Positions 2,835 through 63,646 of a DNA stretch of 64,000 nucleotides are shown here, piece after piece. A program made the position numbers and the translations under genes. The stretch is from Bilabrum cf. latius (Eukaryota). How positions within the stretch are numbered: the stretch's first letter is position 1; each line of letters opens with the position of its first letter. The notes beneath the pieces were generated by a model, which had not been told where the DNA came from, did not search any database, and was given only the letters and a program-made list of their open reading frames with translations. Where the stretch lies: assembly GCA_965178125.1 (NCBI GenBank), contig OZ237758.1:1-64000 (forward strand). The letters are read 5' to 3'.

Positions 2835-4418
2835 TCATGACGTCTTGCCCCGGTGCTGTTCGAGAATTACAATTTCGCACGACGTATGCCCAGCTTGTCG
2901 TGCAATTTGCTGTAGTCTCATAAGTCTGCCTCGGCTACATGCCAGCCTGCCCAGCTTTAGCCGCTTGGCAAGTTCCATCGGCCTCCCATCGGAGCAGCAC
3001 TTGCCTAGAAGACTTGCGTCCTTCTATGCATCAGTGGCTCGCCTCCAAAGCAACACATGCATGAGTAAGCTCCTTCTAGCAACCTCTATTGCAACTCCTG
3101 ACTGTCTCTACAACACATCGTCGCAGTCTCTGCGGTGGGGCTTTGGAGTCATCTCTAGCAACAGCTGCCTTTGCCGTTGATTGCACGGCAGTCGGTTTAG
3201 TCTGAGCTACTTGGAAAGCAAAGGTGCGCTGCCAAGTATACAGCAATGACATAGGACACTCCATTCAGGGATGAACGCTTGCCTATGCCTCCAAGCCATC
3301 CGGAATCGCAGAATAGCCTTGCATCTCTTCGTGCAATTCTCGACACGTCTAAGCCAGTGGTCGTACGGAGGCAGCCTGAGCTCTGCATAGCGGGCTACCT
3401 GCTCGTAAACACGGCGAGGAGGAATGCAATGGAGCGGGCGCTTATTCTGCAGCGGCATGTATTTGCTGTCCATTTGGGTGCGGCGGGTACCTGCTGCCTT
3501 TCTGGTTGTTCTGCGGACCAACCGTGAACCTGTGGATCTGGATCTTCGAGTCGATCCCCAATTCGAAAAAGGTTGTATTCTCAACTACCTAGTAATACCC
3601 CCATCCTCGTCATCAGGGTGCCTTCCAATTGTCATCAATGCCTTGATAACGCCTGCTCGCCGCTGCTTCACAGCCACCCTGAAAGCCTTCCAGTCGTCGG
3701 CCGATACGTCGATGGCTGATTCTCCCTCCAGTGCCAAGAACAGCAGCACTGAATTTGTGAACCCCTTTGCGCACGCAAATTGGAGCTCCTGTGCGCCCGG
3801 GCGAAACATCCAGTCATTCTTGCAATTTTGCATCTCCAGCAGATGGAGAAGCAAGTCGTCATTCCCACTCTTGCAGGCGCTTGTGAACATGAATCGAATG
3901 GAAGGGGTCATTGTCTGCGGCGTTCCAGTTATATAATCTAGAACAATGCATCGAACCTGATCGTCATACCCGAATCTCTTGCCTGCGATGCACTGCACCA
4001 TTCCAGGCAAGAATCGGCGGCGGCTGCCACGAAGAGAGAGTAGGAGGAGAATCAGCTCCGTGCGCTCCTAGGCAAATGCAATTCGTAGAGCACTATCCTC
4101 GTCGAAATGCACGTCGACCTGCCTCTCGTCGCTTATCTCAAGCAATGCCTTGAGGGTGGACAACGGCGAGCTGCGACGTCTGCATGCGGCTTCGAAGCAT
4201 TTCTGCGCCGCCGCTGGGGTTACGGCCGGCGATGGTAAACCCAAAAGTTCATGCATGGTCCATACCCTTCCAAGGTCACAAGCTATGCTAAACCCCTCAT
4301 TGATCGTCTAGCTGGCAGAATCGCGTGGAATGCCATGACCGCCACTCTTGAGAATAGCAAGAACTGGACCTGCGCTCTTGCTGCCGCAGGCGGCCAGAAA
4401 CTATTCATGCAGAGACAT
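2835..4418 (-). CDS. Ankyrin-like repeat protein (~527 aa with TAG=Gln, 7 in-frame TAG)
   Basis: One frame from ATG 4418 to TGA 2835 joins ORFs 4068-4256, 3585-4010 and 3207-3584; ANK-like DVHFDEDSALRIAFA*ERTELILLLL and DVSADDWKAFRVAVKQRRAGVIKALM. Confidence 0.7.
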
Positions 4419-4671
4419 AACACGAAAAAGTATTATTGCTACCTACTCTGTGCCCGGATTCGCGAAACGGACTGGAGAAGCGGAGTGAGGCAAATCCATG
4501 TCGAACGGCGCCGACCATGCAATGCAGCCTGGCAGTCCAGATCCGGAATTGAAATCACATGGCGAGGATCACTGAGGCAGGAACGTGCAGCCCAGTTGAG
4601 CGTGACATATCAAAAACATGCCTATTTCAAGGGTTAGCTGAAGCCGGAGCCTTTTGAACTACCCTCTGGAC

Positions 4672-6761: not shown

Positions 6762-7203
6762 CTTGCTCTCGCGATGAGATAATTTTCTACTCGTGTGCAT
6801 GCGAGAATATGCTGAGCACGAGCTGCCGTTTGCAACCTGCAACCGGTGGAGCCGGACCTTCTTGAAGATGAAGACAACTTGAAGGCACGAGTTCGCTTCC
6901 ATCACCCATTTCGAGAGGGCAAGCTCTCCGCACTTGCTAGCCATTCGTTGTGTACACGTGCTACGTATAGGCAAGCGCGCACGCGTATCTAGGCGGTTGT
7001 TGTGGCGCCAAATCATGTCCTCAACAGCAGCGGCAAGCGCGTCAGGTGCCCAATGTAGCGTCGCAAGTGCGTATCCCACCGAAAGTATAGCCACCAAACT
7101 GGCACCATGGGCTACGGGAGAGGGTACTTTAGGCTCGAATCCGTTGGAAGTGCTACACAGGGTTTCGCTGCCAGCTCCGCCCCGGTCAGTTTCGGTACCA
7201 GCC

Positions 7204-8970
7204 ATGACAGGGAGCACCGATGAGACTCATGGGGCTAAGCTTAGCAGTATTGGTATGTCGGGATCAAAGCGGAGGAAGGTCGAAACCACGGATGCGGGCG
7301 AAAAAGCAGCCGACGACACCACTCCGGGCCTTGCAGCTGCGGCGGCTGCCCGCTCTTCTGATGCCGTGGGCAAATTGTTCCACTGCGGTCCAGCTCTTAC
7401 GTTTTCAGTTGATGCAACTAGTGGGATGGCTCGGGCTACGACGCTGAGGATGTCGCACGGGATGGTGCCCACTCCGGTTTTCATGCCGGTTGGGACGCAA
7501 GGCACAGTTAAAGGGGTATCCCCTGCGGACCTGGAAGATCCAGCGCTTGATTGCCGCATTGCACTCGGTAATACATACCATCTTGGGACTAGGCCGGGGG
7601 AAGAGCGCATGAGAAGGTTGGGCGGGCTGCACAAGCTCATGGGCCTGCGGCCGGGCAGGTGCTTGCTCACAGATAGCGGCGGTTTTCAGATGGTATCGCT
7701 GTTGCATCTGGCTGAAATCACAGAGAAAGGCGTTGAGTTTAGGTCGCCGATGGATGGCTCCAAGATGCTCCTGACCCCGGAGCGCAGCATGCGGATCCAG
7801 AATGCCATCGGAGCAGACGTGCTCATGGCGCTGGACGACGTGGTGGACTCCAAGACAGTGGACGGGCCCAGATTCAAGGAGGCCTGCGAGCGAACCTTGC
7901 GCTGGATAGACCGGTGCATTGCAGCTCACCGCCGCACCGATACCTAGAACCTCTTCGGCATCGTGCAGGGTGGGCTTGACACGCGCCCAGGAGGTCTCAG
8001 GGACGACAGCTTACAGGGCATGATGCGGCGGGACCCATGCCTGCCTGGATATGCCATCGGTGGGCTAGCCGGGGGGGAGGATAAGCGCTTCTTCTGGAGG
8101 GTAGTGGCGCAGTGTTGTGCAGCCCTACCTCCGTGGAAGCCGCGCTACTTGATGGGGGTCGGCTTTCCGCTGGATCTAGTGGTGTGCACTGGGCTGGGCG
8201 TGGATATGTTTGATTGCGTGTTCCCCACTCGGACGGCTCGATTTGGATGCGCGCTTGTGCCGGGGGGATAGCTTCGCCTGCGCGCAGGCGGCAGCAAGAA
8301 AGGCTCGAGGAAAGGGGCGGCCAGCGGGTCAGGGTCCACTGGCAGTAGTGCCGCGTCCTCTCTTTCGCCTGCGGAGGACCCGCGCCCTATCGACGAGACT
8401 TGCCCGTGCCCTGCGTGCAAGAGGGGAAGAGAGGGCTTCACCAGCAGGGCGCGTCTGCATGCGCTGGCCAGGGGTCCCGACCCAGCTACTGCGGCTCAGT
8501 TGGTCACTCTGCACAACATCTGCTACATGCTGAGGCTCTCACGAGCGATGCGGAGGGCAGTGGTGCTGGACCAGTACCCACAGTTTGCACAAGCATTCTT
8601 GCGCGAGTACTACCCGCGAGCTGGGGCTGCTCCCTCGGACTCTGCAGGTCTGCCGAAAGCAGGAGGCTCCAAGGGCTCTGCAGCCGAGGGGGCAGTTCCC
8701 CTGTGGGCGAGGGAAGCGCTCACTGCCGCGGGAATCGCTGGTCCAGGGCGGGAGTGGCTGCTGGCATCTGAGGAGGAGAGCTGCCGGAGCGGGGATGGGG
8801 GCGCATAGGGCTCGTCTCCAGCTGGCGAGGAGGAGCAGTTCGCGGCTGCGATCCCATCGGTTTCGCTGGAGGCTCGCTTCGAGGGCTCCACGCTGGACTG
8901 GGGCCTGGGTGAGGAGGGGGACGCTGGCGAGGGTTGGGGGCAGGTCGAGCTTGGCGTGCCGGTGGCTTGA
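7204..8970 (+). CDS. QTRT1: Queuine tRNA-ribosyltransferase catalytic subunit (TGT)
   Basis: [61 protein letters not shown]...HN zinc site; TAG at 7945, 8269, 8806; TGA at 8968; start codon uncertain. Confidence 0.95.
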
Positions 8971-10913: not shown

Positions 10914-12770
10914 TCAGGACTTGGAACTGGATCGTGGCGACCTTACTCCTCCAAGAAGCGATACCGCAGCGGCTCCGAGCACTGCACCGGCTGCTACGCA
11001 GGCAACTGCGGCCAGCACTGAGAATGCCGGTGCAGGCGTCTTACCTCGATCTCCTTTCTCTTTCTAGGAGCCGGCAGCTTCCACTGCACTCTCTGGAACA
11101 TCGTTCTCCTACCCATCGGTGGCCCACCCGAGGCTGCGCTCCACAGCTCGCTCCCAGGTAGTAACCCTGGCCTGCCTCTCTTCCTCCTCCATGGCAGGCT
11201 TAAACTCGGCATCCAGCTCCCACTGGTCCCGCAAGTCGTCCAATGAGCTCCAGAAACCTACAGCCAAGCCGGCTGCATACGCTGCTCCCAGTGCTGTGGT
11301 TTCAATCACGGCAGGTCGCTGCACGCTACTGCCAAGTACATCGGCCTACATCTGCAGCATGGCTCCATTCACCGTCATGCCACCGTCCACACGCATAGTC
11401 AGGTCTGGGGCGCTGTCCGCCTTTTCCCCATTTCCAGTAGATGCAGCGCCGCCCTTAGCCTGCGCATCATCGGCCACATCCTGGGCCATCGCCACAGCGA
11501 GCTCCCTGGACTGGAAGCAAGTAGCCTCCAGCGCGGCCCTGCATATGTGTCCCCTGCAGCTGCCCTTGGTGAGACCCACGATGATCCCCCGTGCGTCGTC
11601 CCTCCACCTGGGAGCGAACAGGCCGCTAAAAGCAGGCACAAACACGAGGCCACCACTGTCCTCTACCTCCTCTGCCAGCTTTTGCACGTCGCTGCTGCTG
11701 GAGAAGAGCTTCAGGTTGTCCCGCATCCACTGCACAACGGAGCCGGCCTGGCTCACGCTCCCCTCCAGTCCAAATACCGCGGGCTCATCGCCGATCTTGT
11801 AAGCAACTGTTGTGAGCAGGCCGTGCGAGGACTTGACCCGCCTCTGGCCAGTGTTTCTGAGCATGAAGCAGCCCGTGCCGTACGTGTTCTTGGTTTGCCC
11901 CGGCTCGAAACACGCCTGCCCGAAGAGCGCCGCCTGCTGGTCCCCGAGTATGCCAGCCAGGGGCACGCCCTCCAGGAACTTGCTCGCCTTGGTGCCGTTC
12001 TGTCGCTCCTGCCTGCTCAGCCCCGCCTCGTCAGGACCCGTCCAGACGTCGCAGTCCGCGTACGTCTCTGAGGAGGAGACGATCTAGGGCAGCATGCGCA
12101 TGGGCACGTCGAAGTGCCCGCATAGGTCCTTTGCCCAATCTAGCGTATCTAGGTCCATCAGTAGTGTGCGGGATGCATTTGTCACATCTGTGATGTGCCG
12201 CCCCTTCCCTGGACCGCCAGTGAGGCACCAGGCGAGCCACGAATCGATCGTCCCAAATACTGCCTTGCCACCCTCGGCCTTTTCGCGTAGACCGTCCGTG
12301 TGATCAAGCAGCCACTTCAATTTGGGACCGCTGAAGTACGGAACAATGGGCAGCCCTGTCCTCGCTGCCAGCGAGTCGCGGCCACCAAGCTCCTTCGAAA
12401 CGGTCTGGCAGATCTTCGCAGCTCGCGTGTCCATCCACACGACAGCCCTTGTCAGCGGCTCTCCCGTGTCTGGGTTCCACACCAAGGTCGTCTCTCTCTA
12501 ATTTGTAATGCCGATTGCGGCAAGGTCGGCGGCAACAGCGTTTGCTTTTTGCATGCACGCAACCACAACTTGAAGGGTCCGCGCCAGGATCTCAAGTGCA
12601 TCGTGTTCAACGTGCCCCTCGGCGGTAGTGTGCTGCGTATGCTCCTCATGAGCAGATGCAACGATGCTACCTTTCTTGTCGAATAGAATGAACCTAGTCG
12701 AGGTAGTGCCCTGGTCAATTGATCCGACGTACGTCGACGTTGAGCCGGACCTTCGTGATGCAGCAGCCAT
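10914..12770 (-). CDS. GK: Glycerol kinase (FGGY family) with C-terminal hydrophobic tail
   Basis: [62 protein letters not shown] at 12498, 12084, 11346, 11109, 11064; TGA at 10914. Confidence 0.96.
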
Positions 12771-14727: not shown

Positions 14728-15206
14728 TCAGGCGGTGATGTTGCGGGGCTGGATGTCGACGCCGGGCTCCAGCTTGATGTTCGTGAGCTTCTGCACGAGG
14801 TCCTTGGGGGCAGTCGTGTCGACAATGCGCTTGTGGATCCTCATGGTGAAGCGGTCCCAGGTCTGGGTACCGTTGCCACCGGGGGACTTCCGGGTGGTGA
14901 TCTGCAGCTGCTTGGTAGGCAGGCGCACGGGTCCGGTTGCCTTCAGGCCCAGCTTCTTGCACTGGTCCTTGAGGCGGGCGCACACTGCGGTAAAATACAA
15001 GTAGAGCAATACAATTCGTTGTGACTGGGTGGCCCTGAACGAATGATTCAGTCATCCGAGGCAATAACTCCTAGGGCTCTCGTCGCTGGTCTGGAAAGTG
15101 TCTCACTGGTCTCGAGCTTGGCAACCTCAGTGCTCTGGAGCGTGAACCTGATCTTGCTCACGTCCGCCCTCCCGGGCTGGTAGACATCCTTCTTTGCGGC
15201 AGCCAT
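14728..15206 (-). CDS. RPS20: 40S ribosomal protein uS10 (S20), one intron 14985-15106
   Basis: KIRFTLQS...GPVRLPTKQLQITTRKSPGGNGTQTWDRFTMRIHKRIVD; GTGAG...GCAG intron restores the frame. Confidence 0.95.
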
Positions 15207-15526: not shown

Positions 15527-18500
15527 TCAATGCAAAGTTGTCATGCGGACCTGTGATCGGATCCCGTATCGTGCCCCGCCCGGCCCCCACACCTCTGCTG
15601 TCCCATCAGGGTCGGCCGGTGGCAGACTGGGGCGTCGACCTCGGTGTCCCTCGGGCCGCAGGGGTGGTTCGGGTCCGAACGACTCTGCAAAGCTGACACT
15701 ACTATCGTGGTCTTTTGGTGCATGACTTCGAGCCGCGTCCTCTTCCGCCGATCCCTACCCCGACTCAGGAGACCCAAACGTCGTGCTACCCCGATCTACT
15801 CTTTGGAGCACATCTGCCGCCCTCTAGGCCGCTAGCTGCAGCTGGCGCTGGAGCCTGCGCTGGTGGGCCGAACCAGTGCGGGCGAGTCCCCTGGGCTACT
15901 GGACGGGTGCCTCTCTGTGAATGCTGGCCACACTCCCCTCGAGTGAATCTGCCTCGTGCTCCTGCTTGCTCTCTCCCTAGCTGCTGCCCCCGCCCCGCTA
16001 GTGGGATGCATGAGCCTTGCTGTGAAGGCTCCCACTCGCCCCCAGCTGCCCAGCGGGGTCCTCCGGAAGCAGCACGCCGCCCTGATGCCATGCAGCCGCG
16101 CCGCCGCGGCTTGCCCCACGGCGCTGCCCTTGGGCCCGATCGCCGGGCCGCTGGTGCACGGCTCTCTTTTGCATGGGGCTGAACGGTGGTGCACGGCCTC
16201 TGCTCTGGCTTGCAGAACCAGCGCCAGTGTCAGATCGAGCGGCTGCTATTCCCCGAGTGCGTTCTACTTCTGAACGCGGCCCCGTTGTGCGTGACGGTCG
16301 TCGCTCTGCATACGATGCCCCTCCCATCCCCCCAGCGGGCCCCGCCAGCACTCCGATGTCGCCTGTGTCTGCAAGCCCGGCGTCTCGGAGGGCTCGGTCG
16401 AGGGAAATGGCGGCACGGCGCACCTGTCGCGGCATGTGCGGCTGCATGTGCGGGTCTGCGGCTAGCCGTTGCAACTCCAAGGCGTGTTCCACCACACGGT
16501 CCTTGTGTTTCTCCTGGGCGCGATGGCTAGCACCAGGTCTGGCAGACCCATGGGCGGCTCGCCCCCGGCCAGTGGGCCCGGCAGCACGATTGCGGCGGCC
16601 CCCATCGGACTCCCGCAGCAACGAGCGCTCTTCCGCCTGCAGTGCTGCATCAAGTGCCTGCAACGCATCCTACTCTTCGGGGGTGCGATGCTGATGCTGT
16701 AGAGGCTGCTGCGGACGATCCACCATGTCCCCGCTCTGCCTCCCTGCGGCGACTCGGGCCTGCTCCAGTTGCCTCAAGGGCACAGCCTCACCTTGGTCGT
16801 CTGCAGTGGCTGCATGCCGCCCACCAGATGGGATCTGCAGGCCGGGAATCAGACGGGATAGTGCTGCAAGAGCCGCTGCAGCTGGTCCGCGCCCCCGACC
16901 GGCCGACCTGCCACCAGGGCTTGTTTGGGCAGCGATCATCGACTGCTATCCAATGATGTGCGGCTGCAGCTGGGCATCGTGTGACGGCTGCTGGGCATCG
17001 CGTGACGGCTGCTGGGCATCGCGTGACGGCTGCTGGGCATCGCGTGACGGCTGCTGGGCATCGCGTGACGGCTGCTGGGCATCGCGTGACGGCTGCTACC
17101 TGTCGTGGTGTGGCTGATTGGCATCGCGTTGCTGCTGCTATACTAGCAATTGATCGTTGGGCTGCACTCGCGATTGACCATAGGGCTGCACCCCACGAAC
17201 TACCCACGTGTCCCGTGAAATATCCGCCTCGCGCGAGCTGGCGGCTGAGGCTTCTTTGCTACTGCCGTGGTCTCCTGGCGACACATTCGCTCCTGTCCGA
17301 CCTGCTGCTCCAAGCAGCATGCTGGAGATACCAACGAGGCGAACCACCTCCCTGTGCTGGTCCTGTGCAGTCATCTCGGACTCTAGTGCGGCAGGGCGGG
17401 TTGTTGCAGCATGTTGCTACCGCACATAGCCGACGTCACCCTCCTCGGTGACTTCTGCCGGAGAAGTGCCGAGCACCTGCAATGGCGCGTTCACGTGTAC
17501 TTCCGAACCTTGCGCTGAAACATCAGATGCAGCAGCACGGTGGGCAGTAAGGCGTGCACCAGGGCTGGGCTGGGGCGATTCTGTGGCATCGGATGGTTTG
17601 AGACGCAGCTTGCCGCTGCTGCTGGCTCCAACCCAGTCGTTTGGAGCTTCGTTCGTTGCGTGAACGGTCGATTGCAGCCCGAAGTCAGGATCAAGATGCA
17701 CATGCATGCGAGACGACCGGCGGCTGCTGCTGCTAGCCTCAACCCCTGGCTGGGTGCTTGCAGTTGCACTGACTCGCATGGATGGGAACTGGCCGCCGGT
17801 CCTCGGCACCACAGCGGCTCGAGCAGCTGCAGCCATCGCCTCAAACCGCCTGCCTCGGGGGCTCCTCAGCTGAGGAGAGCCTGGACCAGTCCTCGCCACA
17901 GACGCTGGGCTGCCAATTAATGAGCTGGTCTGAGATCCCCCGGATCGTGTCTGTCTCCCTGATAGTACCAGTGCAGTGCTGTGAGGCATGCTGCTGTGGG
18001 CTGCCAAGAGAAGATTCTGCTGGCTGTAGGAGTCGCTCGCAGGCGATTTGGCTCGCTTCGGGCTCCAGGGCGCGGCTCGGCCAGGTGGACCTGCACGAAG
18101 AGCCACAGCTCGCTCGCGGCTGAGCACTGCAGCTTCGTGCGGGGGAGGCAGCCTCGGGGGAGCAGGTCTACTTGCGACAGCCGATAATTGATCCTGGGAG
18201 CTTTGATCATTCGAGTTCGATAGCTGTGCCTACCCGGCAATCCCCCTCGCAGCGAACTGACTCAGCCTCTTCTCCCACTCCTACTTGCCGACTACAGCGG
18301 CAACAGCCCGCAGAGTGTTCAGTCGCTGCTAACGCTCTTGCCGCAACAGCTCCTGCAGCTGCCTCACGCGACCCTGCACACCATTGCTCGGGCTCGACTC
18401 TGCCAAAATACTAGTGGATCCAGCAGAGGACGGCTTCTCGGGCTTCCTCGGTGCAGCCTTGGGAGATCCAGCAGAGGACGGCTTCTCGGGCTTGCTCGGT

Positions 18501-21500
18501 GCAGCCTTGGGAGATCCAGCAGAGGACGGCTTCTCGGGCTTGCTCGGTGCAGCCTTGGGAGATCCAGCAGAGGACGGCTTCTCGGGCTTGCTCGGTGCAG
18601 CCTTGGGAGATCCAGCAGAGGACGGCTTCTCGGGCTTCCTCGGTGCAGCCTCGGGAGATCCAGCAGAGGACGGCTTCTCGGGCTTGCTCGGTGCAGCCTT
18701 GGGAGATCCAGCAGAGGACGGCTTCTCGGGCTTGCTCGGTGCAGCCTTGGGAGATCCAGCAGAGGACGGCTTCTCGGGCTTGTTCGGTGCAGCCTTGGGA
18801 GATCCAGCAGAGGACGGCTTCTCGGGCTTGCTCGGTGCAGCCTTGGGAGATCCAGCAGAGGACGGCTTCTCGGGCTTGCTCGGTGCAGCCTTGGGAGATC
18901 CAGCAGAGGACGGCTTCTCGGGCTTGCTCGGTGCAGCCTTGGGAGATCCAGCAGAGGACGGCTTCTCGGGCTTGCTCGGTGCAGCCTTGGGAGATCCAGC
19001 AGAGGACGGCTTCTCGGGCTTCCTTGGTGCAGCCTTGGGAGATCCAGCAGAGGACGGCTTCTCGGGCTTGCTCGGTGCAGCCTTGGGAGATCCAGCAGAG
19101 GACGGCTTCTCGGGCTTGCTCGGTGCAGCCTTGGGAGATCCAGCAGAGGACGGCTTCTCGGGCTTGCTCGGTGCAGTCTTGGGAGATCCAGCAGAGGACG
19201 GCTTCTCGGGCTTGCTCGGTGCAGCCTTGGGAGATCCAGCAGAGGACGGCTTCTCGGGCTTGCTCGGTGCAGCCTTGGGAGATCCAGCAGAGGACGGCTT
19301 CTCGGGCTTGCTCGGTGCAGCCTTGGGAGATCCAGCAGAGGACGGCTTCTCGGGCTTGCTCGGTGCAGCCTTGGGAGATCCAGCAGAGGACGGCTTCTCG
19401 GGCTTGCTCGGTGCAGCCTTGGGAGATCCAGCAGAGGACGGCTTCTCGGGCTTGCTCGGTGCAGCCTTGGGAGATCCAGCAGAGGACGGCTTCTCGGGCT
19501 TGCTCGGTGCAGCCTTGGGAGATCCAGCAGAGGACGGCTTCTCGGGCTTGCTCGGTGCAGCCTTGGGAGATCCAGCAGAGGACGGCTTCTCGGGCTTCCT
19601 CGGTGCAGCCTTGGGAGATCCAGCAGAGGACGGCTTCTCGGGCTTGCTCGGTGCAGCCTTGGGAGATCCAGCAGAGGACGGCTTCTCGGGCTTGCTCGGT
19701 GCAGCCTTGGGAGATCCAGCAGAGGACGGCTTCTCGGGCTTGCTCGGTGCAGCCTTGGGAGATCCAGCAGAGGACGGCTTCTCGGGCTTCCTCGGTGCAG
19801 CCTTGGGAGATCCAGCAGAGGACGGCTTCTCGGGCTTGCTCGGTGCAGCCTTGGGAGATCCAGCAGAGGACGGCTTCTCGGGCTTGCTCGGTGCAGCCTT
19901 GGGAGATCCAGCAGAGGACGGCTTCTCGGGCTTGCTCGGTGCAGCCTTGGGAGATCCAGCAGAGGACGACTTCTCGGGCTTGCTCGGTGCAGCCTTGGGA
20001 GATCCAGCAGAGGACGGCTTCTCGGGCTTGCTCGGTGCAGCCTTGGGAGATCCAGCAGAGGACGGCTTCTCGGGCTTGCTCGGTGCAGCCTTGGGAGATC
20101 CAGCAGAGGACGGCTTCTCGGGCTTCCTCGGTGCAGCCTTGGGAGATCCAGCAGAGGACGGCTTCTCGGGCTTGCTCGGTGCAGCCTTGGGAGATCCAGC
20201 AGAGGACGGCTTCTCGGGCTTGCTCGGTGCAGCCTTGGGAGATCCAGCAGAGGACGGCTTCTCGGGCTTGCTCGGTGCAGCCTTGGGAGATCCAGCAGAG
20301 GACGGCTTCTCGGGCTTCCTTGGTGCAGTCTTGGGAGATCCAGCAGAGGACGGCTTCTCGGGCTTGCTTGGTGCAGTCTTGGGAGATCCAGCAGAGGACG
20401 GCTTCTCGGGCTTGCTCGGTGCAGCCTTGGGAGATCCAGCAGAGGACGGCTTCTCGGGCTTGCTCGGTGCAGCCTTGGGAGATCCAGCAGAGGACGGCTT
20501 CTCGGGCTTCCTCGGTGCAGCCTTGGGAGATCCAGCAGAGGACGGCTTCTCGGGCTTGCTCGGTGCAGCCTTGGGAGATCCAGCAGAGGACGGCTTCTCG
20601 GGCTTGCTCGGTGCAGCCTTGGGAGATCCAGCAGAGGACGGCTTCTCGGGCTTGCTCGGTGCAGTCTTGGGAGATCCAGCAGAGGACGGCTTCTCGGGCT
20701 TGCTCGGTGCAGCCTTGGGAGATCCAGCAGAGGACGGCTTCTCGGGCTTCCTCGGTGCAGCCTCGGGAGATCCAGCAGAGGACGGCTTCTCGGGCTTCCT
20801 CGGTGCAGCCTCGGGAGATCCAGCAGAGGACGGCTTCTCGGGCTTGCTCGGTGCAGCCTTGGGAGATCCAGCAGAGGACGGCTTCTCGGGCTTCCTCGGT
20901 GCAGCCTTGGGAGATCCAGCAGAGGACGGCTTCTCGGGCTTCCTCGGTGCAGCCTTGGGAGATCCAGCAGAGGACGGCTTCTCGGGCTTGCTCGGTGCAG
21001 CCTTGGGAGATCCAGCAGAGGACGGCTTCTCGGGCTTCCTCGGCGGGGCGCCTGCCTTGGGCGATGCTGGAGCAGGCTTCTTCGGCGTGGCGCCTGCCTT
21101 GGGCGATGCCGGAGCAGGCTTCATCGGCGTGGCGTCTGCCTTGGGCGATGCCGGAGCAGGCTTCCTCGGCGGGGCGCCTGCCTTGGGCGATGCCGGAGCA
21201 GGCTTCTTCGGCGGGGCGCCTGCCTTGGGCGATGCCGGAGCAGGCTTCTTCGGCGTGGCGTCTGCCTTGGGCGATGCCGGAGCAGGCTTCTTCGGCGTGG
21301 CGTCTGCCTTGGGCGATGCCGGAGCAGGCTTCTTCGGCGGGGCGCCTACCTTGGGCGATGCCGGAGCAGGCTTCTTCGGCGGGGCGCCTGCCTTGGGCGA
21401 TGCCGGAGCAGGCTTCTTCGGCGGGGCGCCTGCCTTGGGCGATGCCGGAGCAGGCTTCTTCGGCGGGGCGCCTGCCTTGGGCGATGCCGGAGCAGGCTTC

Positions 21501-22357
21501 TTCGGCGGGGCGCCTGCCTTGGGCGATGCCGGAGCAGGCTTCTTCGGCGGGGCGCCTGCCTTGGGCGATGCTGGAGCAGGCTTCTTCGGCGGGGCGCCTG
21601 CCTTGGGCGATGCTGGAGCAGGCTTCTTCGGCGTGGTGCCTGCCTTGGGCGATGCTGGAGCAGGCTTCTTCGGCGGGGCGCCTGCCTTGGGCGATGCCGG
21701 AGCAGGCTTCTTCGGCGGGGCGCCTGCCTTGGGCGATGCCGGAGCAGGCTTCTTCGGCGGGGCGCCTGCCTTGGGCGATGCTGGAGCAGGCTTCCTCGGC
21801 GGGGCGCCTGCCTTGGGCGATGCCGGAGCAGGCTTCTTCGGCGGGGCGCCTGCCTTGGGCGATGCCGGAGCAGGCTTCTTCGGCGGGGCGCCTGCCTTGG
21901 GCGATGCCGGAGCAGGCTTCTTCGGCGGGGCGCCTGCCTTGGGCGATGCCGGAGCAGGCTTCTTCGGCGGGGCGCCTGCCTTGGGCGATGCCGGAGCAGG
22001 CTTCTTCGGCGGGGCGCCTGCCTTGGGCGATGCTGGAGCAGGCTTCTTCGGCGGGGCGCCTGCCTTGGGCGATGCCGGAGCAGGCTTCTTCGGCGGGGCG
22101 CCTGCCTTGGGCGATGCCGGAGCAGGCTTCTTCGGCGGGGCGCCTGCCTTGGGCGATGCCGGAGCAGGCTTCTTCGGCGGGGCGCCTGCCTTGGGCGATG
22201 CTGGTTTCGCCGGGGCTTTAGGCCGTTTATTGCTAGTTTTAGTACTACTGGGTGGCATTGGGGGGGCTTTACTGCCGCCAGCCTTTGGTACAGGTTGTTT
22301 GGATCCTATTTTACTGCTTGGCGCACTCGCTTTTGGAGGGCCGGGTTTTCCTGGCAT
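15527..22357 (-). CDS. Very large low-complexity protein (~2,276 aa) with N-terminal SPK-repeat region
   Basis: One frame from ATG 22357 (MPGKPGPP) to TGA 15527 joins five ORFs through ~13 TAGs, with no TAA/TGA. Confidence 0.75.
16970..17098 (-). repeat. 21-bp coding tandem repeat (QQPSRDA)x6
   Basis: CAGCAGCCGTCACGCGATGCC units on the minus strand; the first unit begins TAG instead of CAG. Confidence 0.92.
18417..21041 (-). repeat. 45-bp coding minisatellite, ~58 copies (KPEKPSSAGSPKAAP[S/R])
   Basis: GGGAGATCCAGCAGAGGACGGCTTCTCGGGCTTGCTCGGTGCAGCCTT pattern at a 45-bp period on the plus strand. Confidence 0.97.
21042..22205 (-). repeat. 39-bp coding minisatellite, ~30 copies (PKKPAPASPKAGA)
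   Basis: CGGCGGGGCGCCTGCCTTGGGCGATGCCGGAGCAGGCTT pattern at a 39-bp period on the plus strand. Confidence 0.97.
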
Positions 22358-26269: not shown

Positions 26270-28899
26270 TCACTCGTCCGCCTCCCCCTCGAACTCCACC
26301 ATGACCTCTCCGTCGGCCACCTGCTGCTCCGGGCTCACGTGCACCGCCTTGACGACCACGTCCCGGGGGGCCTTCACGTTGTGCTCCATCTTCATCGCCT
26401 CCAGCACCACCAACGTGTCACCCGCCTGCACTGCCTGGCCCGCTTCCGCTGACACCGACACAACTTTTCCAGGCATGGGTGAGACCACCGCACCCGCCGA
26501 GTCGGCCGCGCCACCCGCCCCTAGGTCGGCCAGAGGCGCCTTCACCACCACGCAGGGGTCCAGGAAGGCGATCTCGGGCTGGGACCCTGCGTCCTGCGCG
26601 CCTGCGCTCCCGCCCAGCGACGACAGAGACAGGTCGTCCCGGCGGACTGCCGCGGCCGCCTCCTGGGATGCGGGAAGCCCATCGCAGAACACGGCGAACT
26701 CCTGCGCGGTGGCCCCCTTGGCAGGGAGCGGCAGCGCCACCACCAGGGCGGTGAAGGAGGCCCCGTCCCCTGCCTCTCCGCGGATGCGCACGAGCCCAGG
26801 CCCCGCCACGCTGCTGGTATCTGCAGCATCCAGCTCCTAACCAGTCAGTGCCTCCACTTCGCAGCGGAGGTTTCGCAGGCTGGTGCTGGCCTCATCACCG
26901 CCCTACGCACCCGACACGGTCACCCGGAAATCCGTGGCATCCCCTGGGACGAATCGCCCGCCGGCCATGGACACCTGGACGCGGGCCCCCTCGCTGCACC
27001 CCGCGATGCCTCCTTCCTCTCCGGCCTCTGCCCCGAAGCCGTACTCGAAGTGCGCCACCTAGGGCGCTCCGATGGGCCTGTGCCCGTCCCCCTGGGACCA
27101 CACGTCATCGCTCCAACCCGGCGAGGCCGCCTCCTGGGTCTGCTCTGCCCTCGCCTGCGCTAGCAGCATGCGGGCGATCGAAGCCAGCGCCGTTGCGGGC
27201 CTGGCCCTCGCCACCGCCACTGGGTCCGAGCCCTGGTCCTGCGCCCCCCCTGCCTGGGGCAAGATATCCGTCAGGTGCTTGGCCAGGAAGGACGTGTCCA
27301 CCCCGCCAGCGGCAAACATGTTGTGCCGCGCAGCAGCTCGCAAAAACGCGATGTTGTTGGGCAGACCCGCCACTCTGTACCGCGCCAGTCCCTGGTCCAG
27401 CCGAGTGAGGGCAGCCCGCCTGTCCTCCCCCCTCGCGATCACCTTGGACACCATGGGGTCGTAGTGGATGCTCACCTCGTGGCCCGCGCCCACACCCGCA
27501 TCCACCCTCACCCCCGGCACAGACGCGTCAGGAGTCTCGCAGCAGTGCAGCGTGCCGGTGGCAGGCAGGAACCCAGCCGCGGGTTGCTCGGCGTACACGC
27601 GCGCCTCGATGGCGTGTCCTCCCCACGAGGCGTCGATCTCGTCCTGCGTGAGCGGAAGGGGCTGCCCGCAGGCCACGCGCAGCTGCCACTCCACCAAATC
27701 CACCCCCGTGATCATCTCAGTCACGGGGTGCTCCACCTGCAGGCGGGTGTTCATCTCCATGAAGAAGAACGGAGTCCCGCCAGCAAGGGAGGCGGGCTCA
27801 CCCGCCGCTGCCTGCGCCTCAGTGGGCACGGGCCCGTCCACCATGAACTCCACCGTCCCCGCACCCACGTACCCGACTGCCTTGGCCGCGTCCACGGCCT
27901 TCTTGCCCATGTCCGCCCTCAGCTCCTCGGTCATCCCCGGCGCGGGGGCCTCCTCCAGCACCTTTTGGTGCCTGCGCTGCACCGAGCAGTCGCGCTCCAG
28001 GAGGTGCACCGCATTGCCGTGCAAGTCTGCGAAGACCTGGAACTCGACGTGCCTGGGCCTGGGCAGGAACCGCTCCACGAGCACGTTGTCGTCCCCGAAG
28101 GCTGCCTTGCTCTCCCGGCGGCACGAGTGCAGAGCCTCCAGGAAATCGCCCTCCTCCAGCACTGCCCGCATGCCCTTGCCGCCTCCACCCATGACCGCCT
28201 TGATCATGACCGGGAATCCCGCCGCCTTTGCCTCCTCCAGCAGCCGCTCGTCAGACTGCTCGTCCCCGTGGTAGCCGGGAGTGCAAGGCACGCCGGCATC
28301 AGTCATGATACTCTTTGACGCGCTGCGGGCGAGATGCGATCGCGGCAAAACGATCAGGTAGATAGAAATAGCGCTGTGCGGTTTGAAACGACTGCATGCA
28401 ACGCCCATCACTCTTACCTCTTGCTTCCCATGGACTCGATAGCCCCCTTCGGCGGGCCAATGAACACGATCCCGTTCGCCGCGCAGGCTTCCGCGAATCC
28501 AGAGTTCTCACTCATGAAGCCATATCCAGGATGCACTGCTTGCGCACCAGTGCGAGAGCACGCCTCCAAGATGGCCTCCTGACGCAGGTAGGACTGCGAT
28601 GCCGCCGGGGGGCCGATCCGCACCGCCTCATCAGCAGCCTGCACGTGCATCGCGTTTGCATCGGCGTCGCTGTATACCGCCACAGTTTTTACACCAAGAG
28701 ACCGGGCAGACCTAATTACTCGGCACGCGATTTCGCCCCTGTTGGCAATCAAAATCTTATCAAACATCTAGCCGCCGCGCGCCAGTGCTAGGTCCTCAGC
28801 GCTCGCGAAGCATCTGGTCCCGGTCCTTCGAGCGATCGCAGCGGCTACCTGCACAGACCGCGATACTCTGCTACTTCTTCCGGCCAACCGTGCAAGCAT
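26270..28899 (-). CDS. MCCC1: Methylcrotonoyl-CoA carboxylase alpha (biotin) subunit; intron 28323-28417
   Basis: [66 protein letters not shown]; the intron restores MGSKSASKSIM; 4 in-frame TAG. Confidence 0.9.
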
Positions 28900-31281: not shown

Positions 31282-33465
31282 ATGCGAAGCAAGTTTGCTG
31301 CGTTGGTATGCATTACTGCAGCAGTTGCTATGGCGGGATATGCCAAGCGACCGAATTTGTGAGTTGTTTTACGCACGGGATATGCCAAGCGGATCCGAAT
31401 GATCGCAACGGGTCTCGCATCCACACGTTGAACAGCAAATATTTGACATTTTGCGCATCGCAGTGTTGTTCTTTTCGTAAGATTGGTACCATTCTCAGCT
31501 ATGGAAAACGTTTGCGCCGAAATCTCTGCCCCGCTGCAGAGCATCGAACGACCTCAGCGTCCTGTTGCACTTGCGTTTCAATTGCGCAGGCAGATGATCT
31601 TGGTTACGGGGACATCGGGGCCAACGGTGCTCCGTCCTGGAAGACACCCAACCTGGACAGGCTTGCGTTTGAGGGCATGCGGTTTGGCTAGTGGTACAGC
31701 GCCGCGCCTGTCTGCACCCCGTCGCGTGCTGGCCTGTACACGGGGCGGTATCCAGTTCGCAGTGGCACTGCAGGACCGTACACTGCGAACGTGTCAGACT
31801 TTACTCGAACCCCAGGGGTATTCAGCTGCAACGCAGACTACGGGCTCCCACTGAATGAAACGACCTTCGCCGAGCACCTGAAGAGCGCCGGCTACTCGAC
31901 CATGCTGGCGGGCAAGTGGCACGAGGGGCAGCGCAAGCAGTACCTGCCCAACAAGCGGGGCTTTGACAGGTGAGAGGGTTGTGGGGGATGCCGCTGCACG
32001 GACGCCGATGCGCACCGCCCACCCCATCTGCCTCTGTGCCTTGGAGCCATCGGCTCGCCCTACTTGAAGTTTCCTGGAAATAGCTTGCCCTTGAAGTTCC
32101 CATCAACTGCCCCGCAGATACGCCGGCATCCCTTACAGCGTGGACATGGGGGGAAGCTATTTCCAGGGCAAGTTCTACGCGAACAACGAGTGCAACCCGC
32201 TGCCTCTCTTCAACATGAGCGGGCCTGACGACTACACGATCTTCCAGCAGCCTGCGGTGTTCGACACGCTCGCACAGTTCTACGCGAATGAAACCACCCG
32301 CTTCATCCGGCAGCACGCCCACGACGAGGACCCCTTTCTCCTGGTCATGGCTCACTCGCACGTGCACACCGCCGTGGCAGGGGACGCCGAGTTCGCTGGG
32401 CAGCAGTTCTGGAACTCGACAGGCAGGGGCCCATTCGGCGATGCTGCCTCTGAGATGGACTGGGTGGCGGGGCAGATCCTGGACGAGGTGGACAATCAGG
32501 GCATCTCCGAGGACACGGTGGTGTTCTTCACATCGGACAAGTGAGTCAGCTGTTCTGCGTGCGCGCTCTTGTTGGCAGCCCGTACTGCTTGCAGCATCCA
32601 TCTCGACATGCCGCCTCCTCTATTGCACCTGACTCATCGCAGCGGCCCGTGGCGCATCAAGGGCCTGGACGGTGGCACGAGCGGCCTGTACCAGGGGCTG
32701 TATGCGATCCTCAACTACGGGTACGCAGACACGGGCAAGGCCTCCACCTGGCAGGGAGGCATCACCATGCCTGCTGCGGCTCGGTGGCAGGGCAAGACAC
32801 CCCCCAACAGCGTCAACTACAACATCCACAGCACGATGGACATCTTTCCCACCATGCTGTCGCTGGCGGGCGTGCCGCTGCCCAAGGACCGATCGATCGA
32901 CGGGCGCGACATGAGCTCTCTGCTCATGGGATAGGGGGACAACGCGCACGAGACCATCATGCACTACCGGCAGGGGACCATCTTCGCCGCGCGCAAGGGG
33001 GGCTTCAAGGCGCACTTCGCCACCAAGTCGGGATACGGCAAGGACAAGACCGTTGTGCACGACCCTCCCCTGTTCTTCAACACGCTCATCGACCCCATGG
33101 AGCAGTACCCCATCGACGTGAAGAACCTCCCCGCGGGCGTGTTCGACGACATCATGCATGCCGTGGAGGCCCACCGAGCCACGCTGGCCAACGGGACCTC
33201 TCAGAACCTCCTGGGGCCTTCCAACAGGACCTACGGGGTATGCTGCGATCCTTCTAAGCAGTGCATGTGCAACGGCCCCGATGGCGCCCCTGTCTCCGCG
33301 CAGGAAGCCATGGACCTGTGGGAGTCTGGGCAAGGCCGGTCCATTGGTAGCGCGGCTGCCTCGAGCCACTCGGACCTCTGGCCGGAGCTGGAGCGGGGCA
33401 TGGACGCGACCGGGGTGGCCACCGCAGAGGAGATCACCTCCAGGCCCGACCTCAGGGACTGGTGA
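31282..33465 (+). CDS. Arylsulfatase (formylglycine-type), 5 exons (introns 31359-31463, 31477-31589, 31970-32117, 32541-32642)
   Basis: Signal peptide, then spliced KRPNFVVLFADDLGYGD, CTPSRAGLYTGRYP, GKWH, TSDNGPW; TAG at 31689 and 32932. Confidence 0.92.
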
Positions 33466-33589
33466 CTGGTGGGGAGTTGACTATCGCAGGGAGCTGGTGC
33501 CCGAGGTTGGCCAGCGGTGGCACGCGGAGCAGCTGCTCTCCTGCCTCTCCTGCCGTCTCGTGCGCATCGCTTATTTTCAATACCTCGGC

Positions 33590-34486
33590 TTAATTATGCG
33601 GCCTGCTTCGTCTTTGCACTGATTTTACCACCAGGACAACTTCTCCTAGCACCTTTGCAGTCTGTCCGCCCTCTGCTGCGCTGCCCAGCTGCCCCTCCCT
33701 GGCTGCATGCAAGGCGCCCCTCGCTGTTGTATGGAGCACCTGCTCGTGGCGCTTGCTCAGCTCCCTACACACCACCACGCCCCGCTGATGGCTGCTAAGC
33801 ATTTCACTTGCAGTAGCAGAGGCAGCGGCGATGTCCATCGCCTCGCACAGCTCCACCAGCGTGCTCTCCAGTCGTCTAGGGCTCTCGTAGGCCACCGTGC
33901 ATCCCGCGCCACTGCCAGCCGTCTTCATCCATTGATCTCGGGCCTCACCTCGCCTGGGAACAAAGCCAGAGAAAGAAAATCCATGCATTGACGCGTACAC
34001 GTCCCCGGCTACGCTCATCGCCGCAACCGCTGCGCTTGGGCCCGGCACCGGAGACACTCGGTGACCATCGGAAGCAACTCGCGACACCAAGGCTGCACCG
34101 GGATCTGACACGCAAGGAGTCCCGGCATCCGCCACGAGGCAAGCGTGGCGGCCACCTCTTAGCCAATCTATGCAAGCCTGTGAGGCCTGTTCAATAGAGT
34201 GCTCATCGCATCGAATAAGTCTTTGGCTGATGGCAGCCGTACCCTTGCCGCCAAGGACGCTTTTAACTTTACGAATCGCTCTGTTTGCAACCCTAGTATC
34301 TTCAGCCAAAACAAATGGTGAGCTCAAGAGGACTTGAGCAGCCCGCACCGATATATCGCCCCAGTTCCCAATTGGTAGCCCAACCACACGAAGCACTCCC
34401 CTGGAATGATTTGGGCCCGAGTGCAGTCGTCTCGCTGGCACCACCAATTCATGCCAGTGGGCGAGCCTTCTACTAGAAATCATCAT
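33590..34486 (-). CDS. rsmI: RsmI-like rRNA 2'-O-methyltransferase (tetrapyrrole methylase family)
   Basis: VGLPIGNWGDISVRA, LAEDTR, DAGTPCVSDPG, PVPGPSA, YESPRRL, CRELSKRHE, GEVVLVV; first non-TAG stop is TAA at 33590. Confidence 0.85.
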   Translation of the reverse strand: MMISSRRLAHWHELVVPARRLHSGPNHSRGVLRVVGLPIGNWGDISVRAAQVLLSSPFVLAEDTRVANRAIRKVKSVLGGKGTAAISQRLIRCDEHSIEQASQACIDWLRGGRHACLVADAGTPCVSDPGAALVSRVASDGHRVSPVPGPSAAVAAMSVAGDVYASMHGFSFSGFVPRRGEARDQWMKTAGSGAGCTVAYESPRRLESTLVELCEAMDIAAASATASEMLSSHQRGVVVCRELSKRHEQVLHTTARGALHAAREGQLGSAAEGGQTAKVLGEVVLVVKSVQRRSRPHN

Positions 34487-34641
34487 CACTTGCTACATAC
34501 GTAGCTCCCAGTCTGTGTGTGCAGTGCGTCGTGGTCCAATTCGACCAAAACCGGGACTGCAGGTGAGCAGAGGCGAGCACCATTAAAGCACGCATTCTAG
34601 CGAAATATTTCTGTCGTGTACTCCGGGCAACCTGCTTAATC

Positions 34642-35640
34642 ATGCGTATGCTACTACTCGCGTGCTACACTGCGCTAGCTACGGTACTGGCCGCTCAAGA
34701 AACCGCCGTTGCGGAACTGGTTGCAAAGACCATTTTGAAGCAGCACATGGCAAGCACAGAGAGAGTTGACCGCGATTAGTTCTTAGCTCATCTATGGAGT
34801 ACAGGTATCATGCGAATACGAGCTGAGTCCCTGTGCGAAGCAACTGCACAAGTGCCTCATGGACCGCAAGTGCTACCTTCGTGCGACAAGTGGATGTCAG
34901 AATCGGCGATGCACGAGGCGGCAGCCGAGCTCACAGATATACTACTGCAGCAGCATACATTAGCCATGCATTCGAGATCCGTGGCTATGGAGCGAGGGTT
35001 GCTGGGTGATGTTGGAGCATGCCCCTCTGCCTGGTTCACCCATTGGCAGCAGGCCTCTGGGATGTGGGACAGGCTGAGGGCCGAGTACCCTGAGCACATG
35101 GCGATACTGCTCATGATCGTGAAGCGATCCGTTGGGCTATACATGGCTTCTGCTGGGGGCTCCAATCCGTTCGCAGCTGGCACAGGGAAGGGGTCTCCAG
35201 CGGTGCATCTATCTGCATCGGTGCACGCCAACTGCAGCGCGGGGCACAGCTACGGAGACAGGCAGGCGGGCGTGAGCGGGTCCATGGGTCTATCCCTAGG
35301 CATTGCCAGTGGCAGACTGGGCCTTCTGGACCCTCGCGGACCGAATACCCCCTTCGATGCAGACGCGGTCGGTTTCGCGCTGTCCGGCGGCGAGCTGCTT
35401 CTCTTCCCGAGCTACATGCAGAGAGAGGTGCTGCCCACCGCGGGGGACGGCGAGTACAGGGTGTCCGTTGAGTTCAATGTGCCTCTGGAGGAGAGATAGT
35501 AGGCTGACAGAGTCATGCGGCGGCATGTTTGGACCAAGGTGCAAGCGGGGACTGGCAGCAGACAGACGGGCGCCACGAACGAAGCCATCCTCGCACCCAC
35601 CCTGTGCTCCGATGCAAAGTGCCCTCCGTTGCTGTAGTAA
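34642..35640 (+). CDS. Putative secreted 2OG-Fe(II) oxygenase-like protein (TIGR02466-like), possibly degenerate
   Basis: Hydrophobic N-terminus; GRLGLLDPRG and GELLLFPSYMQREVLP...RVSVEFNV; 4 TAG; ends TAG-TAA at 35635-35640. Confidence 0.55.
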
Positions 35641-35903
35641 CTTGCACTGCTATCGCAATCCGCGCCCGACGAAATTGGACCTGCAAGCCGTCCTCACTTT
35701 CTCCCACAATGATTGCTGCCGTCAATGCAATCCCAGTTCACGTTGTCTCACATGCCGTCCCTTCGGAAGGTGCAACGCACGATTGTGCTAGCAAGGTTCA
35801 CTTTTGCTGGCCCTACATTACTTTCAAAGCTAGCCTAAGATAGAAGTCCGTCGATTGTCGGACTTCCATCTCTCCTATTGCGGAAGCGCCGACGTGGTGC
35901 GCG

Positions 35904-43789: not shown

Positions 43790-44126
43790 GTCATGCATTG
43801 CACTGTAATGCTTTATTGGTCCACGGCGGCTTCAACAGAGCCCCGTTTGATAATCATGGAGTGCATCCATAGCCGAAGCGACTGCGGAGTAGGATCATGC
43901 GCAGTCACAGTTTACATTCCAAAAGGTACAAGCAGGGACGAAGATACGCTTCGTTTTGAATGGCCACTTGACACTATAGAATCTCCATCCACACAAGAGT
44001 GAGCCCACTGGCCAAATCCTTGGTCCGTGCTTTTCAACAATTAATATATGATTTGTCTATGTGGCGGTTCCATTGCTTGGTATTCGCAGGTTTACCGCAT
44101 ATCTTCAAGGCGTGTACAAGCTTACC

Positions 44127-62200: not shown

Positions 62201-63646
62201 CTCCAAGGATCGCAAATCCAGGGTCCATCGAGCGCCCGCCAGGACCGGATGGCCCCGGCCTGGCCTGAGCCTGCCTCGCCCTGGACGGCCCACCGGCCCT
62301 CCTCCGCTGCGACCGCGAGTTGGACGACGAGGACGAGGACATGCCACGCGTGTGCCCTTGGCTAGTGCCATCATCATCCGCAAAAGGCACAAAGGACCCG
62401 CCCGCCGCCCCCTAGTCACCACCAGCCCCCGTGTCCCTCGGCTGCAGCGCCAGGCCCAGCCCCCGCCTGCCCCCCCGGCGGCTCGCTGCGGCGGCAGCCT
62501 GGGCTCGGTCCTGAGGCACTGCCAGACCGGTTGCAGAGCCAGATACGCCACCAACCCCCCTTGCATTCTCCCCCGGCTTCACCGCCAGCACCCCCAGCGG
62601 CCTCCTCCTCTTGGCCCCACCAGCACCAGCTGCAGCACCAGCAGAGGCACCCAGGGCTGCGTCCGGCCCCTCGCCCGCTGCCCCGAGTAGACCCATGCCC
62701 GCAGCAGGACCGTCACCAACATCGCCCGCAAGGTCCACGGCCCCATCTATACCGGCCTCAGCCCCCGACCCCTTGACCCCCGCTGCCTGCGCCTCGAGCC
62801 GCCCCAGGTCCACGTCCTTCCACTCCACCTCAACCTCCTTGGCAGAGGCCGCGGTAGAGTCCGAGGGGGAGGACCCTCGGGGACCGCTGGTACGAGCACC
62901 CTGCAGCGCCTTCCATTGCGCCACCATGCGGCGGCGGAACATGGCATGGCGAGCAGCGAGCCTCTCGCGTTTGTCCGTGCCGCGCCTGACGCCGTGGGAG
63001 TAGACTCGCTCAGCAACCGTAAATCGGCCATCCCGCTCTGCCACGTGCCCCCAAGCCATATAGAATAAGGCGCATCCCTCACCGATCCTCTTCGACCACA
63101 GGTATCGAAATGTTGGTGCCGGATCCTTCGCCATGTTTGCGAGGCGAATCCAGAGCGCAACGTAGCGCGTATCGTTCCGATACCTGGGATCCTTGGAAAA
63201 CTGGGAAGTCACCTCCTCTAAAGCGGTTTCAACAGGTGTTTTCACACCCCCTGACGGCAGGTGGTCCTCAATCCAACGGATGTAGTCGATCCACGACGAC
63301 AGAGGGTCCTCCGATTTGGCAGCCTTGGCAATCCTTTTCTTCCATGCTCTGCTCCAACAGTTTACAGTAGAATCGTTCGAAAACCAAAAATATGAATTTA
63401 TAAGGGCATTATAATAGGTAATTTGGCACAAATTGGCGATTGGGCTCTTTCTTTAGGGACAGGACCAGGTGTATTGTGCACCACTCACTGTTGCTTCTTC
63501 TTGAGCTCTTTGGCAGACAGCTCTTCGCGCCCTAGAACTCTATTCAGCCTTCGAACATTGCGACCACGTTTCAAGGGCTGCACGTTTTCTTTGCTCGTCT
63601 CCCACTCCGGGTCATTCACGCTTGCTTCGGCAGGACGGGCCGCCAT
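59265..63646 (-). CDS. Mad3/BubR1 (MadBub)-family spindle checkpoint protein, no kinase domain; intron 63349-63488
   Basis: WETSKENVQPLKRGR (KEN1), DPLSSWIDYIRW...YRNDTRYVALW (TPR), RKEN, FEVFQE, LSFEESR, TINTKLALEDMDALF; ~10 TAG; TGA at 59265. Confidence 0.87.

Follow-up and report, generated by a model that had tools for sequence, protein, structure and literature searches.

A probable UAG-only glutamine code at a GC-rich eukaryotic chromosome end, with UAA kept out of reading frames

The window analysed here comprises 64,000 nucleotides of contig OZ237758.1 (assembly GCA_965178125.1, Bilabrum cf. latius, positions 1 to 64,000), and the question is what the codons UAG and UAA mean in its genes. 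UAG is a sense codon that is spread evenly along the coding sequences (CDSs) and stands at positions where homologs have glutamine, while UAA is absent from reading frames far beyond the limits of codon bias. We consider it likely that the organism uses a UAG-only glutamine code of the pattern of NCBI table 15, with UGA as the routine stop and UAA kept out of frames and used as an occasional stop. The two codons nearly always shift meaning as a pair, and the window shows a rare split between them.

The starting set consisted of 27 stop-to-stop models whose open reading frames (ORFs) had been bounded by TAA, with codons counted after the first ATG. These models contained 111 in-frame TAG codons and no TAA or TGA, alongside 152 CAA and 536 CAG, and ended in 24 TGA and three TAA. 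Two of them were rejected as antisense shadows (6015-7226 and 31822-33570, both on the minus strand). The third TAA end (28414-28416) was rejected as a stop because it lies inside an intron of MCCA that is skipped by spliced contigs. These contigs come from runs X5, X6 and X7, which we guess to be RNA.

28323-28417, minus strand: MCCA intron, with the TAA at 28414-28416 bounding the exon-1 ORF; skipped by one contig each of X5, X6 and X7

The 25 genes of the curated set comprise 17,855 codons, of which 107 are in-frame TAG and none is TAA or TGA; CAA occurs 137 times and CAG 524 times, so that UAG makes up 14% of the glutamine codons. These genes stop at 23 TGA and two TAA; addition of the uS10 gene, which is not in the codon tally, brings the gene ends to 24 of 26 TGA and 2 of 26 TAA. 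The initial annotation of this DNA had reported about 100 internal TAG codons against no internal TAA, and TAA as a rare codon ending two genes. Both statements are borne out by the curated counts, and its positions for the two ends, TAA 33590-33592 in an RsmI gene and TAG-TAA 35635-35640 in an oxygenase-like gene, are all correct.

A second organism shows the same usage. Metagenome contigs L001 and L002, which have 321 identical bases of overlap, were found by a search with protein fragment P0122. They carry a DnaJ-Myb gene, Dymeclin, a PTB-like gene, a methyltransferase, RsmI and a convergent sulfatase in the order and orientation of the window at 31.6-43.8 kb, minus the oxygenase-like gene. 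Their GC content is 54-57%, and the GC content of third codon positions (GC3) is about 0.5. In their 3,123 codons we counted 32 TAG, no TAA and no TGA in frame, with 28 CAA and 54 CAG; the UAG share of glutamine codons is 28%. Pooling of both organisms gives no in-frame TAA in 20,978 codons. UGA has been kept as a stop, being absent from frames and ending 6 of 6 genes in the relative as well as the 24 in the window. Since this divergent environmental relative shares the split of UAG from UAA, the split is a trait of a clade and not a one-off. The table-15-like reading of the initial annotation (UAG as glutamine, UAA and UGA as stops) is supported by the window, and the relative agrees with it except for TAA ends (0 of 6).

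Reading TAG as sense doubles the length of DNA in ORFs of at least 300 amino acids, from 55.9 kb to 113.5 kb, whereas freeing TAA alone gives 64.0 kb. Recognizable domains lie downstream of TAG codons or span them: a PH domain (residues 1573-1688) follows 11 TAGs, and a DUF2103 domain spans one. Two enzymes bear on the identity of the amino acid.

10914-12770, minus strand: glycerol kinase CDS with 5 in-frame TAGs, of which 12498-12500 and 11346-11348 fall on invariant glutamines

7015-8970, plus strand: QTRT1/TGT CDS with 3 in-frame TAGs (Pfam TGT, 5.3e-122)

Aligned with PDB chains, the glycerol kinase reads ITNxRET against ITNQRET and lqMxAD against QFQAD or QIQSD, with glutamine in all three chains shown. 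In QTRT1, TAG 7945-7947 is the conserved glutamine of the QNLF motif (PDB alignment against dkQNLFAIIQGG). Three of the five TAGs inside the aligned cores of these two proteins are on an invariant glutamine, and the other two are on variable positions (D/E and N). Between the window and its relative, whose orthologs are 46-60% identical overall, 11 of the relative's 25 distinct TAGs align to a CAG of the window and 2 of the 25 to a TAG; conversely, 2 of the 6 aligned TAGs of the window face a TAG in the relative.

RNA editing is not needed for the sense reading, because TAG is found unaltered in the spliced contigs: of the 26 in-frame TAGs located between 26 and 46 kb, 19 are in spliced-contig pieces listed with no differences from the DNA.

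By tenths of the CDS, the TAG counts are 16, 15, 10, 6, 7, 9, 6, 10, 12 and 15. This distribution bears on the possibility that TAG is context-dependent, as in Condylostoma, the karyorelicts and Blastocrithidia, being glutamine inside genes and a stop near true 3' ends. Several TAGs are indeed at or just past the end of homology. Residue 554 of the glycerol kinase is a TAG where the bacterial homologs end; a TAG TAG pair in the oxygenase-like gene comes 6 residues after the domain, exactly where fragment P0361 ends as called by the standard code; and the RsmI gene of the relative ends TAG-TGA. However, TAG is not concentrated close to gene ends: the final 20 codons hold 2, with 3.0 expected, and the final 70 hold 11, with 10.5 expected. 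The tails after these codons also score as coding, at 0.183 for the 64 codons following glycerol kinase residue 554 and 0.339 for the tail in TGT, on a scale where the mean is 0.22 for in-frame windows and -0.33 for off-frame ones. Moreover, every frame continues to a TGA or TAA, and a TAG stop is not required in any gene. We therefore regard context dependence as very unlikely. The TAGs at homology ends would instead be former TAG stops, the genes having been lengthened to the next TGA or TAA at reassignment. In the glycerol kinase, the TAG at residue 554 may be a former stop that was turned into a tail-anchor extension. The tail itself (10914-11108, minus strand) is coding-like and has a hydrophobic stretch.

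TAA behaves differently from TAG. Off frame, the 25 curated genes contain 49 and 51 TAA triplets. In frame, a glutamine TAA with the same A/G preference as CAA and CAG should occur about 28 times in the window but is absent (Poisson P(0) about 7e-13); on the same assumption 16.6 would be expected in the relative, which also has none (P about 6e-8). Because the ORFs had been bounded by TAA, we checked for circularity by walking 22 gene starts upstream in frame to the previous TGA, with TAA scored as neutral. All of the upstream stretches score as non-coding (-0.03 to -0.59), and TAA is present in 9 of the 22. The only Pfam domain split by a TAA is in MCCA, and the break there is the confirmed intron, in which 95 bases are skipped (CT..AC on the plus strand); the spliced MCCA frame contains 5 TAG and no TAA and is open to TGA 26270-26272.

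These figures bear directly on the ordinary code in which both UAR codons are glutamine (table 6), with TAA simply too rare to appear in 64 kb. The initial annotation had named such a scarcity of TAA through GC bias as the alternative to its own reading. The composition is of the right kind: the window is 62% GC with G/C-rich third positions, A-ending codons are the minority in two-fold sets (as in the CAA and CAG counts above), and the predominance of TGA among the gene ends is what UGA-only systems show. Nevertheless, GC bias does not explain the absence of TAA, because none is found where about 28 and about 17 are expected, and the explanation fails quantitatively in the window and the relative alike. 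The failure in the relative occurs with GC3 near 0.5 and with TAG as more than a quarter of the glutamine codons. The TAA of RsmI, described below, also coincides with an orthologous protein end. We consider the joint reassignment of UAA and UAG extremely improbable here.

The two genes that end in TAA and the gene converging on the first of them are as follows.

33590-34498, minus strand: RsmI-like 16S rRNA methyltransferase CDS, 302 amino acids, with one in-frame TAG (Pfam TP_methylase, 2.8e-21)

31590-33465, plus strand: sulfatase, exons 31590-31966, 32115-32540 and 32643-33465, with GT..AG introns skipped by contigs of X5 and X6

34642-35640, plus strand: 2OG-Fe(II)-oxygenase-like CDS, 332 amino acids (weak Pfam match to 2OG-FeII_Oxy_5, 8.6e-4)

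The homologs of the first CDS are RsmI proteins, and its stop is TAA 33590-33592. The window protein ends ...GEVVLVVKSVQRRSRPHN-TAA and that of the relative, on L002, ...GEVTIVVRSVER-TAG-TGA, ending 5 residues earlier. Judged from this alignment, one UAA stands at an orthologous C-terminus. Past the TAA, 45 more codons lead to TGA 33452-33454, which is inside the convergent sulfatase CDS (stop at TGA 33463-33465); the overlap had been pointed out in the initial annotation. The 45 read-through residues gain no Pfam domain (the RsmI C-terminal domain is in neither copy) and, read by eye, have no likeness to the downstream sequence of the relative. The sulfatase has 2 in-frame TAGs and no TAA, its spliced frame is open to its TGA, and its C-terminus in the relative is also ...PDLRDW-TGA. 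One spliced contig over the sulfatase reaches 33594, adjoining the RsmI TAA.

The oxygenase-like gene has TAGs at 34777-34779, 35497-35502 (the tandem pair) and 35635-35637, the last directly before the stop TAA 35638-35640. It has 64 homologs at E<=1e-3, and its body has a coding score of 0.152, compared with -0.365 and -0.292 in the other frames. Members of the family extend 20-45 amino acids beyond a conserved FNV motif, and their conserved W aligns to a W in the tail of the window protein. Because the length of the tail and this W match the family, the alignment makes the TAA a plausible end of the protein. A search of the intergenic spaces of the window found no further TAA-terminated ORF with coding character.

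The oxygenase-like gene is also present in a sister organism (P0361, 89% identical). In the window it is situated between RsmI and the methyltransferase, while at L001 7250-7531 these two genes are separated by only about 280 bp, without the oxygenase-like gene. Since the contigs that cover the methyltransferase start near 35821-35835, ATG 35904 is a likelier start for that gene than the first ATG at 35709. The space after the oxygenase-like TAA would be about 180 bp.

A number of observations weigh against UAA as a working stop, or against the reading of UAG alone as glutamine more generally. In the window TAA is the end of 2 of 26 genes, and in the relative none of the 6 genes has such an end. 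The coding score of the 45 codons behind the RsmI TAA, 0.028, takes an intermediate value that is not plainly non-coding, so that composition alone does not decide where RsmI ends. In the oxygenase-like gene, the tandem TAG TAG comes 6 residues after the conserved FNV motif and the 45-codon tail from there to the TAA scores only -0.037; L001 lacks an ortholog of the gene at the syntenic position. The contigs cannot show the 3' ends of RNAs, and their cover over 34.0-35.8 kb, where the 5' half of RsmI and the oxygenase-like gene lie, is thin. They also drop rare variants, so partial editing or a minority of edited molecules could escape the comparison with the DNA. Finally, no tRNA gene and no eRF1 gene was found in the window, L001 or L002. 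The working of TAA as a stop is supported by few cases, of which only RsmI is backed by the C-terminus of an ortholog.

In an alternative reading, TAA would be effectively unassigned or avoided, being neither decoded nor relied on to terminate, and UGA would be the sole working stop. The two TAA ends would then be incidental, and the two proteins would stop there inefficiently or go on to the following TGA. Over both organisms, no more than 2 of 32 genes have a TAA end, the uS10 gene, presumed highly expressed, uses TGA, and the intermediate score after the RsmI TAA fits as well. On the other hand, reading through that TAA would append 45 residues that lack homology and would enter the convergent sulfatase CDS, and the relative terminates RsmI at the same place. 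The in-frame TAA found in 9 of the 22 stretches just upstream of genes is consistent with a codon that does no harm only when it lies outside frames. We think an unassigned UAA unlikely.

According to the reading we prefer, nuclear UAG would be translated as glutamine in the organism and in one or more relatives at some distance from it. UGA would be the routine terminator, and UAA, kept out of reading frames, would terminate now and then. A tRNA-Gln(CUA), one base from tRNA-Gln(CUG), would read UAG, and since C34 of this tRNA forms no pair with the final A of UAA, the two codons would be kept apart. The N-domain of eRF1 would have lost its grip on UAG and would still recognise UAA and UGA. 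These steps follow the literature, which is cited here and below from excerpts of the papers. A CUA anticodon reads UAG and not UAA, and is one mutation away from tRNA-Gln(CUG) (PMC5304391). The release factor must not act at UAG; T32G in the GTS motif of eRF1 has been reported for Iotanema and A at position 69 for the rhizarian exLh, and the relevant sites of the N-domain are GTS, NIKS, YxCxxxF and position 69 (PMC5304391).

The clade could also be a living intermediate between the standard code and the code in which UAR is glutamine, with UAG already captured and UAA purged from the frames and, apart from 2 of 32 cases, from the gene ends as well. The change in eRF1 that released UAG would perhaps also have weakened the recognition of UAA, leaving UGA almost the sole terminator. 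We offer this only tentatively and think it rather unlikely. If true, the tRNA and eRF1 steps could for the first time be read from a genome in a UAG-only organism outside the ciliates, given the chromosome-scale assembly and public spliced-transcript data.

The window is a compact, intron-poor end of a eukaryotic nuclear chromosome, and it is not of bacterial origin despite its RsmI and sulfatase genes. Its general features are listed here.

1-2600: chromosome end, with CCCTAA arrays and a 155-bp subtelomeric repeat (Tandem Repeats Finder)

2835-63646, both strands: gene field of 26 genes (25 curated plus uS10)

14728-15206, minus strand: uS10/RPS20, two exons, 15206-15107 and 14984-14728 (Pfam Ribosomal_S10, 4.4e-20, on exon 2)

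28323-28417 (MCCA), 31967-32114 and 32541-32642 (sulfatase) and 43999-44089: introns skipped by spliced contigs

We take the window to be a chromosome end because it starts with (CCCTAA)15 at 1-89 and has two further CCCTAA arrays (645-986 and 1974-2334, by Tandem Repeats Finder) and a subtelomeric repeat. The interstitial arrays within 1-2600 comprise 57 and 60 units and are interleaved with the 155-bp subtelomeric repeat and a 69-bp repeat. The telomere at the window start is of the TTAGGG type. GC content ranges from 0.52 to 0.66 along the window, and genes cover about 84% of it. With TAG as sense, the content of the long frames includes Dymeclin, Mad3/BUB1, CTU1 (PP-loop and zinc ribbon), QTRT1/TGT, STELLO, PH, DnaJ+Myb, MCCA, alanine aminotransferase (AlaAT), glycerol kinase, MOSC and ankyrin repeats. 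No Rfam family matched the window, L001 or L002.

The short GT..AG introns are skipped by contigs of runs X5, X6 and X7 and are unskipped in the DNA run X1. The spliced contigs from X5 and X6 that span the sulfatase joint 31358-31590 contain, between its two sides, 13 letters that lie on neither; these may be a micro-exon or reflect an imprecise joint. The exon junction of uS10 is putative and was placed from the sequence gtgaga...cag. This gene has no TAG among its glutamine codons and stops at TGA, which, for one gene, fits TAG as a minor glutamine codon that is avoided in highly expressed genes.

Several other genes of the window have unusual features. The minus-strand gene at 15527-22357 encodes a protein of 2,276 amino acids, about 3.8 kb of which consists of two near-perfect tandem arrays (48 nucleotides x 54.7 and 42 nucleotides x 27.8) encoding 16- and 14-residue units rich in Pro, Ser, Lys and Ala. 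All 13 of its TAGs are outside the arrays, in the C-terminal third, and the protein matches no Pfam family. The Mad3_BUB1_I domain begins before the first ATG of the main BUB1/Mad3 frame. Upstream of this frame, a short coding-like ORF (63485-63646, minus strand) contains SKENVQPLKRGR, which looks like a KEN box; the ORF is probably exon 1 of the BUB1/Mad3 gene. Two subtelomeric ankyrin-repeat genes (2835-4499, minus strand, and 5763-6761, plus strand) are rich in TAG, with 8 and 5, and have in common the C-terminal motif WRRA..A.KDAS...GRPMELA.RL.LG.LA. These telomere-adjoining genes look like a small paralogous family.

Relatives closer than L001 and L002 (83-89% identity) were found as protein fragments only, namely P0121, P0241 and P0361. 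Their starts or ends fall where a caller using the standard code would break off, and they look like pieces cut by such callers. More distant RsmI matches (L003-L005) are 36-39% identical. In L001 (1-60) and L002 (2400-2800) there are in-frame simple repeats, for example dinucleotide-derived AQ/TG runs, and the 5' region of the relative's sulfatase has a 7-residue HAALRLS unit. A tree of AlaAT, built from 118 of 120 matches (two of at least 620 amino acids were left out), placed the window and P0241 within a clade of 25 sequences without organism names, with support of 0.91. The nearest named sequence was from a raphidophyte, at a node whose support of 0.47 is too weak to name the group. The homolog search with glycerol kinase returned bacterial-type matches only (about 54%) and was uninformative on lineage.

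The source of the window looks like a new, non-ciliate lineage with this code. No ciliates were among the named homologs seen, and ciliate macronuclear DNA does not resemble a chromosome that measures at least 64 kb, has 26 genes and 62% GC and bears a (CCCTAA)n telomere. To our knowledge, a mitochondrial-type MCCA and an RsmI-like gene would be unexpected in an anaerobic fornicate. An affinity to the aphelids (Amoeboaphelidium) was considered and rejected: their genomes have about 40% GC (PMC10608142, Table 1) against 62% in the window, and no near-identical named protein came up among the homologs. We found no description of such an organism in open-access papers and bioRxiv. In practical terms, standard-code gene callers appear to have fragmented the proteins of this clade in public databases. 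Existing data make it possible to test by what means eRF1 distinguishes UAA and UAG, from which source the suppressor tRNA arose and what became of TAG-ended genes.

Nuclear exceptions to the joint change of UAG and UAA number fewer than ten in the excerpts of three papers (PMC5304391, PMC11687900, PMC10553269). The precedents given in the initial annotation are correct as far as the excerpts of PMC5304391 and PMC11687900 go, and Protocruzia tuzeti (glutamine) and Scotinosphaera (serine) can be added to them (PMC11687900). A close match outside the ciliates is the fornicate Iotanema spirale, in which UAG alone is glutamine and UAA is kept as a terminator, with a predicted tRNA-Gln(CUA) and an altered eRF1 (PMC5304391). 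There, however, UAA is the primary stop, whereas 24 of the 26 window genes end in UGA and 2 in UAA. Iotanema is, according to the same excerpts, known from a transcriptome only, and no genome existed in which the tRNA-Gln(CUA) and the eRF1 change of this non-ciliate case could be checked; the window, in contrast, is a GC-rich chromosome end.

Protocruzia tuzeti and two lineages of phyllopharyngean ciliates likewise have UAG as glutamine with UAA unreassigned (NCBI table 15; PMC11687900). The codes in which both UAR codons are glutamine (many ciliates, Hexamita, Streblomastix, some Ulvophyceae and Amoeboaphelidium protococcarum; PMC11687900, PMC6299283) resemble that of the window in the change from stop to glutamine and in having UGA as the main terminator, but differ in that TAA is also glutamine, while the window and its relative have no in-frame TAA against the 28 and 16.6 expected. 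That UAG and UAA can be uncoupled is also evident from the UAG-only codes of the rhizarian exLh (leucine) and Scotinosphaera (serine) (PMC5304391, PMC11687900) and from the ciliate PL0344, in which UAG is glutamate and UAA is lysine (PMC10553269). All three use other amino acids, unlike the window, where TAG falls on invariant glutamines and alternates with CAG between orthologs.

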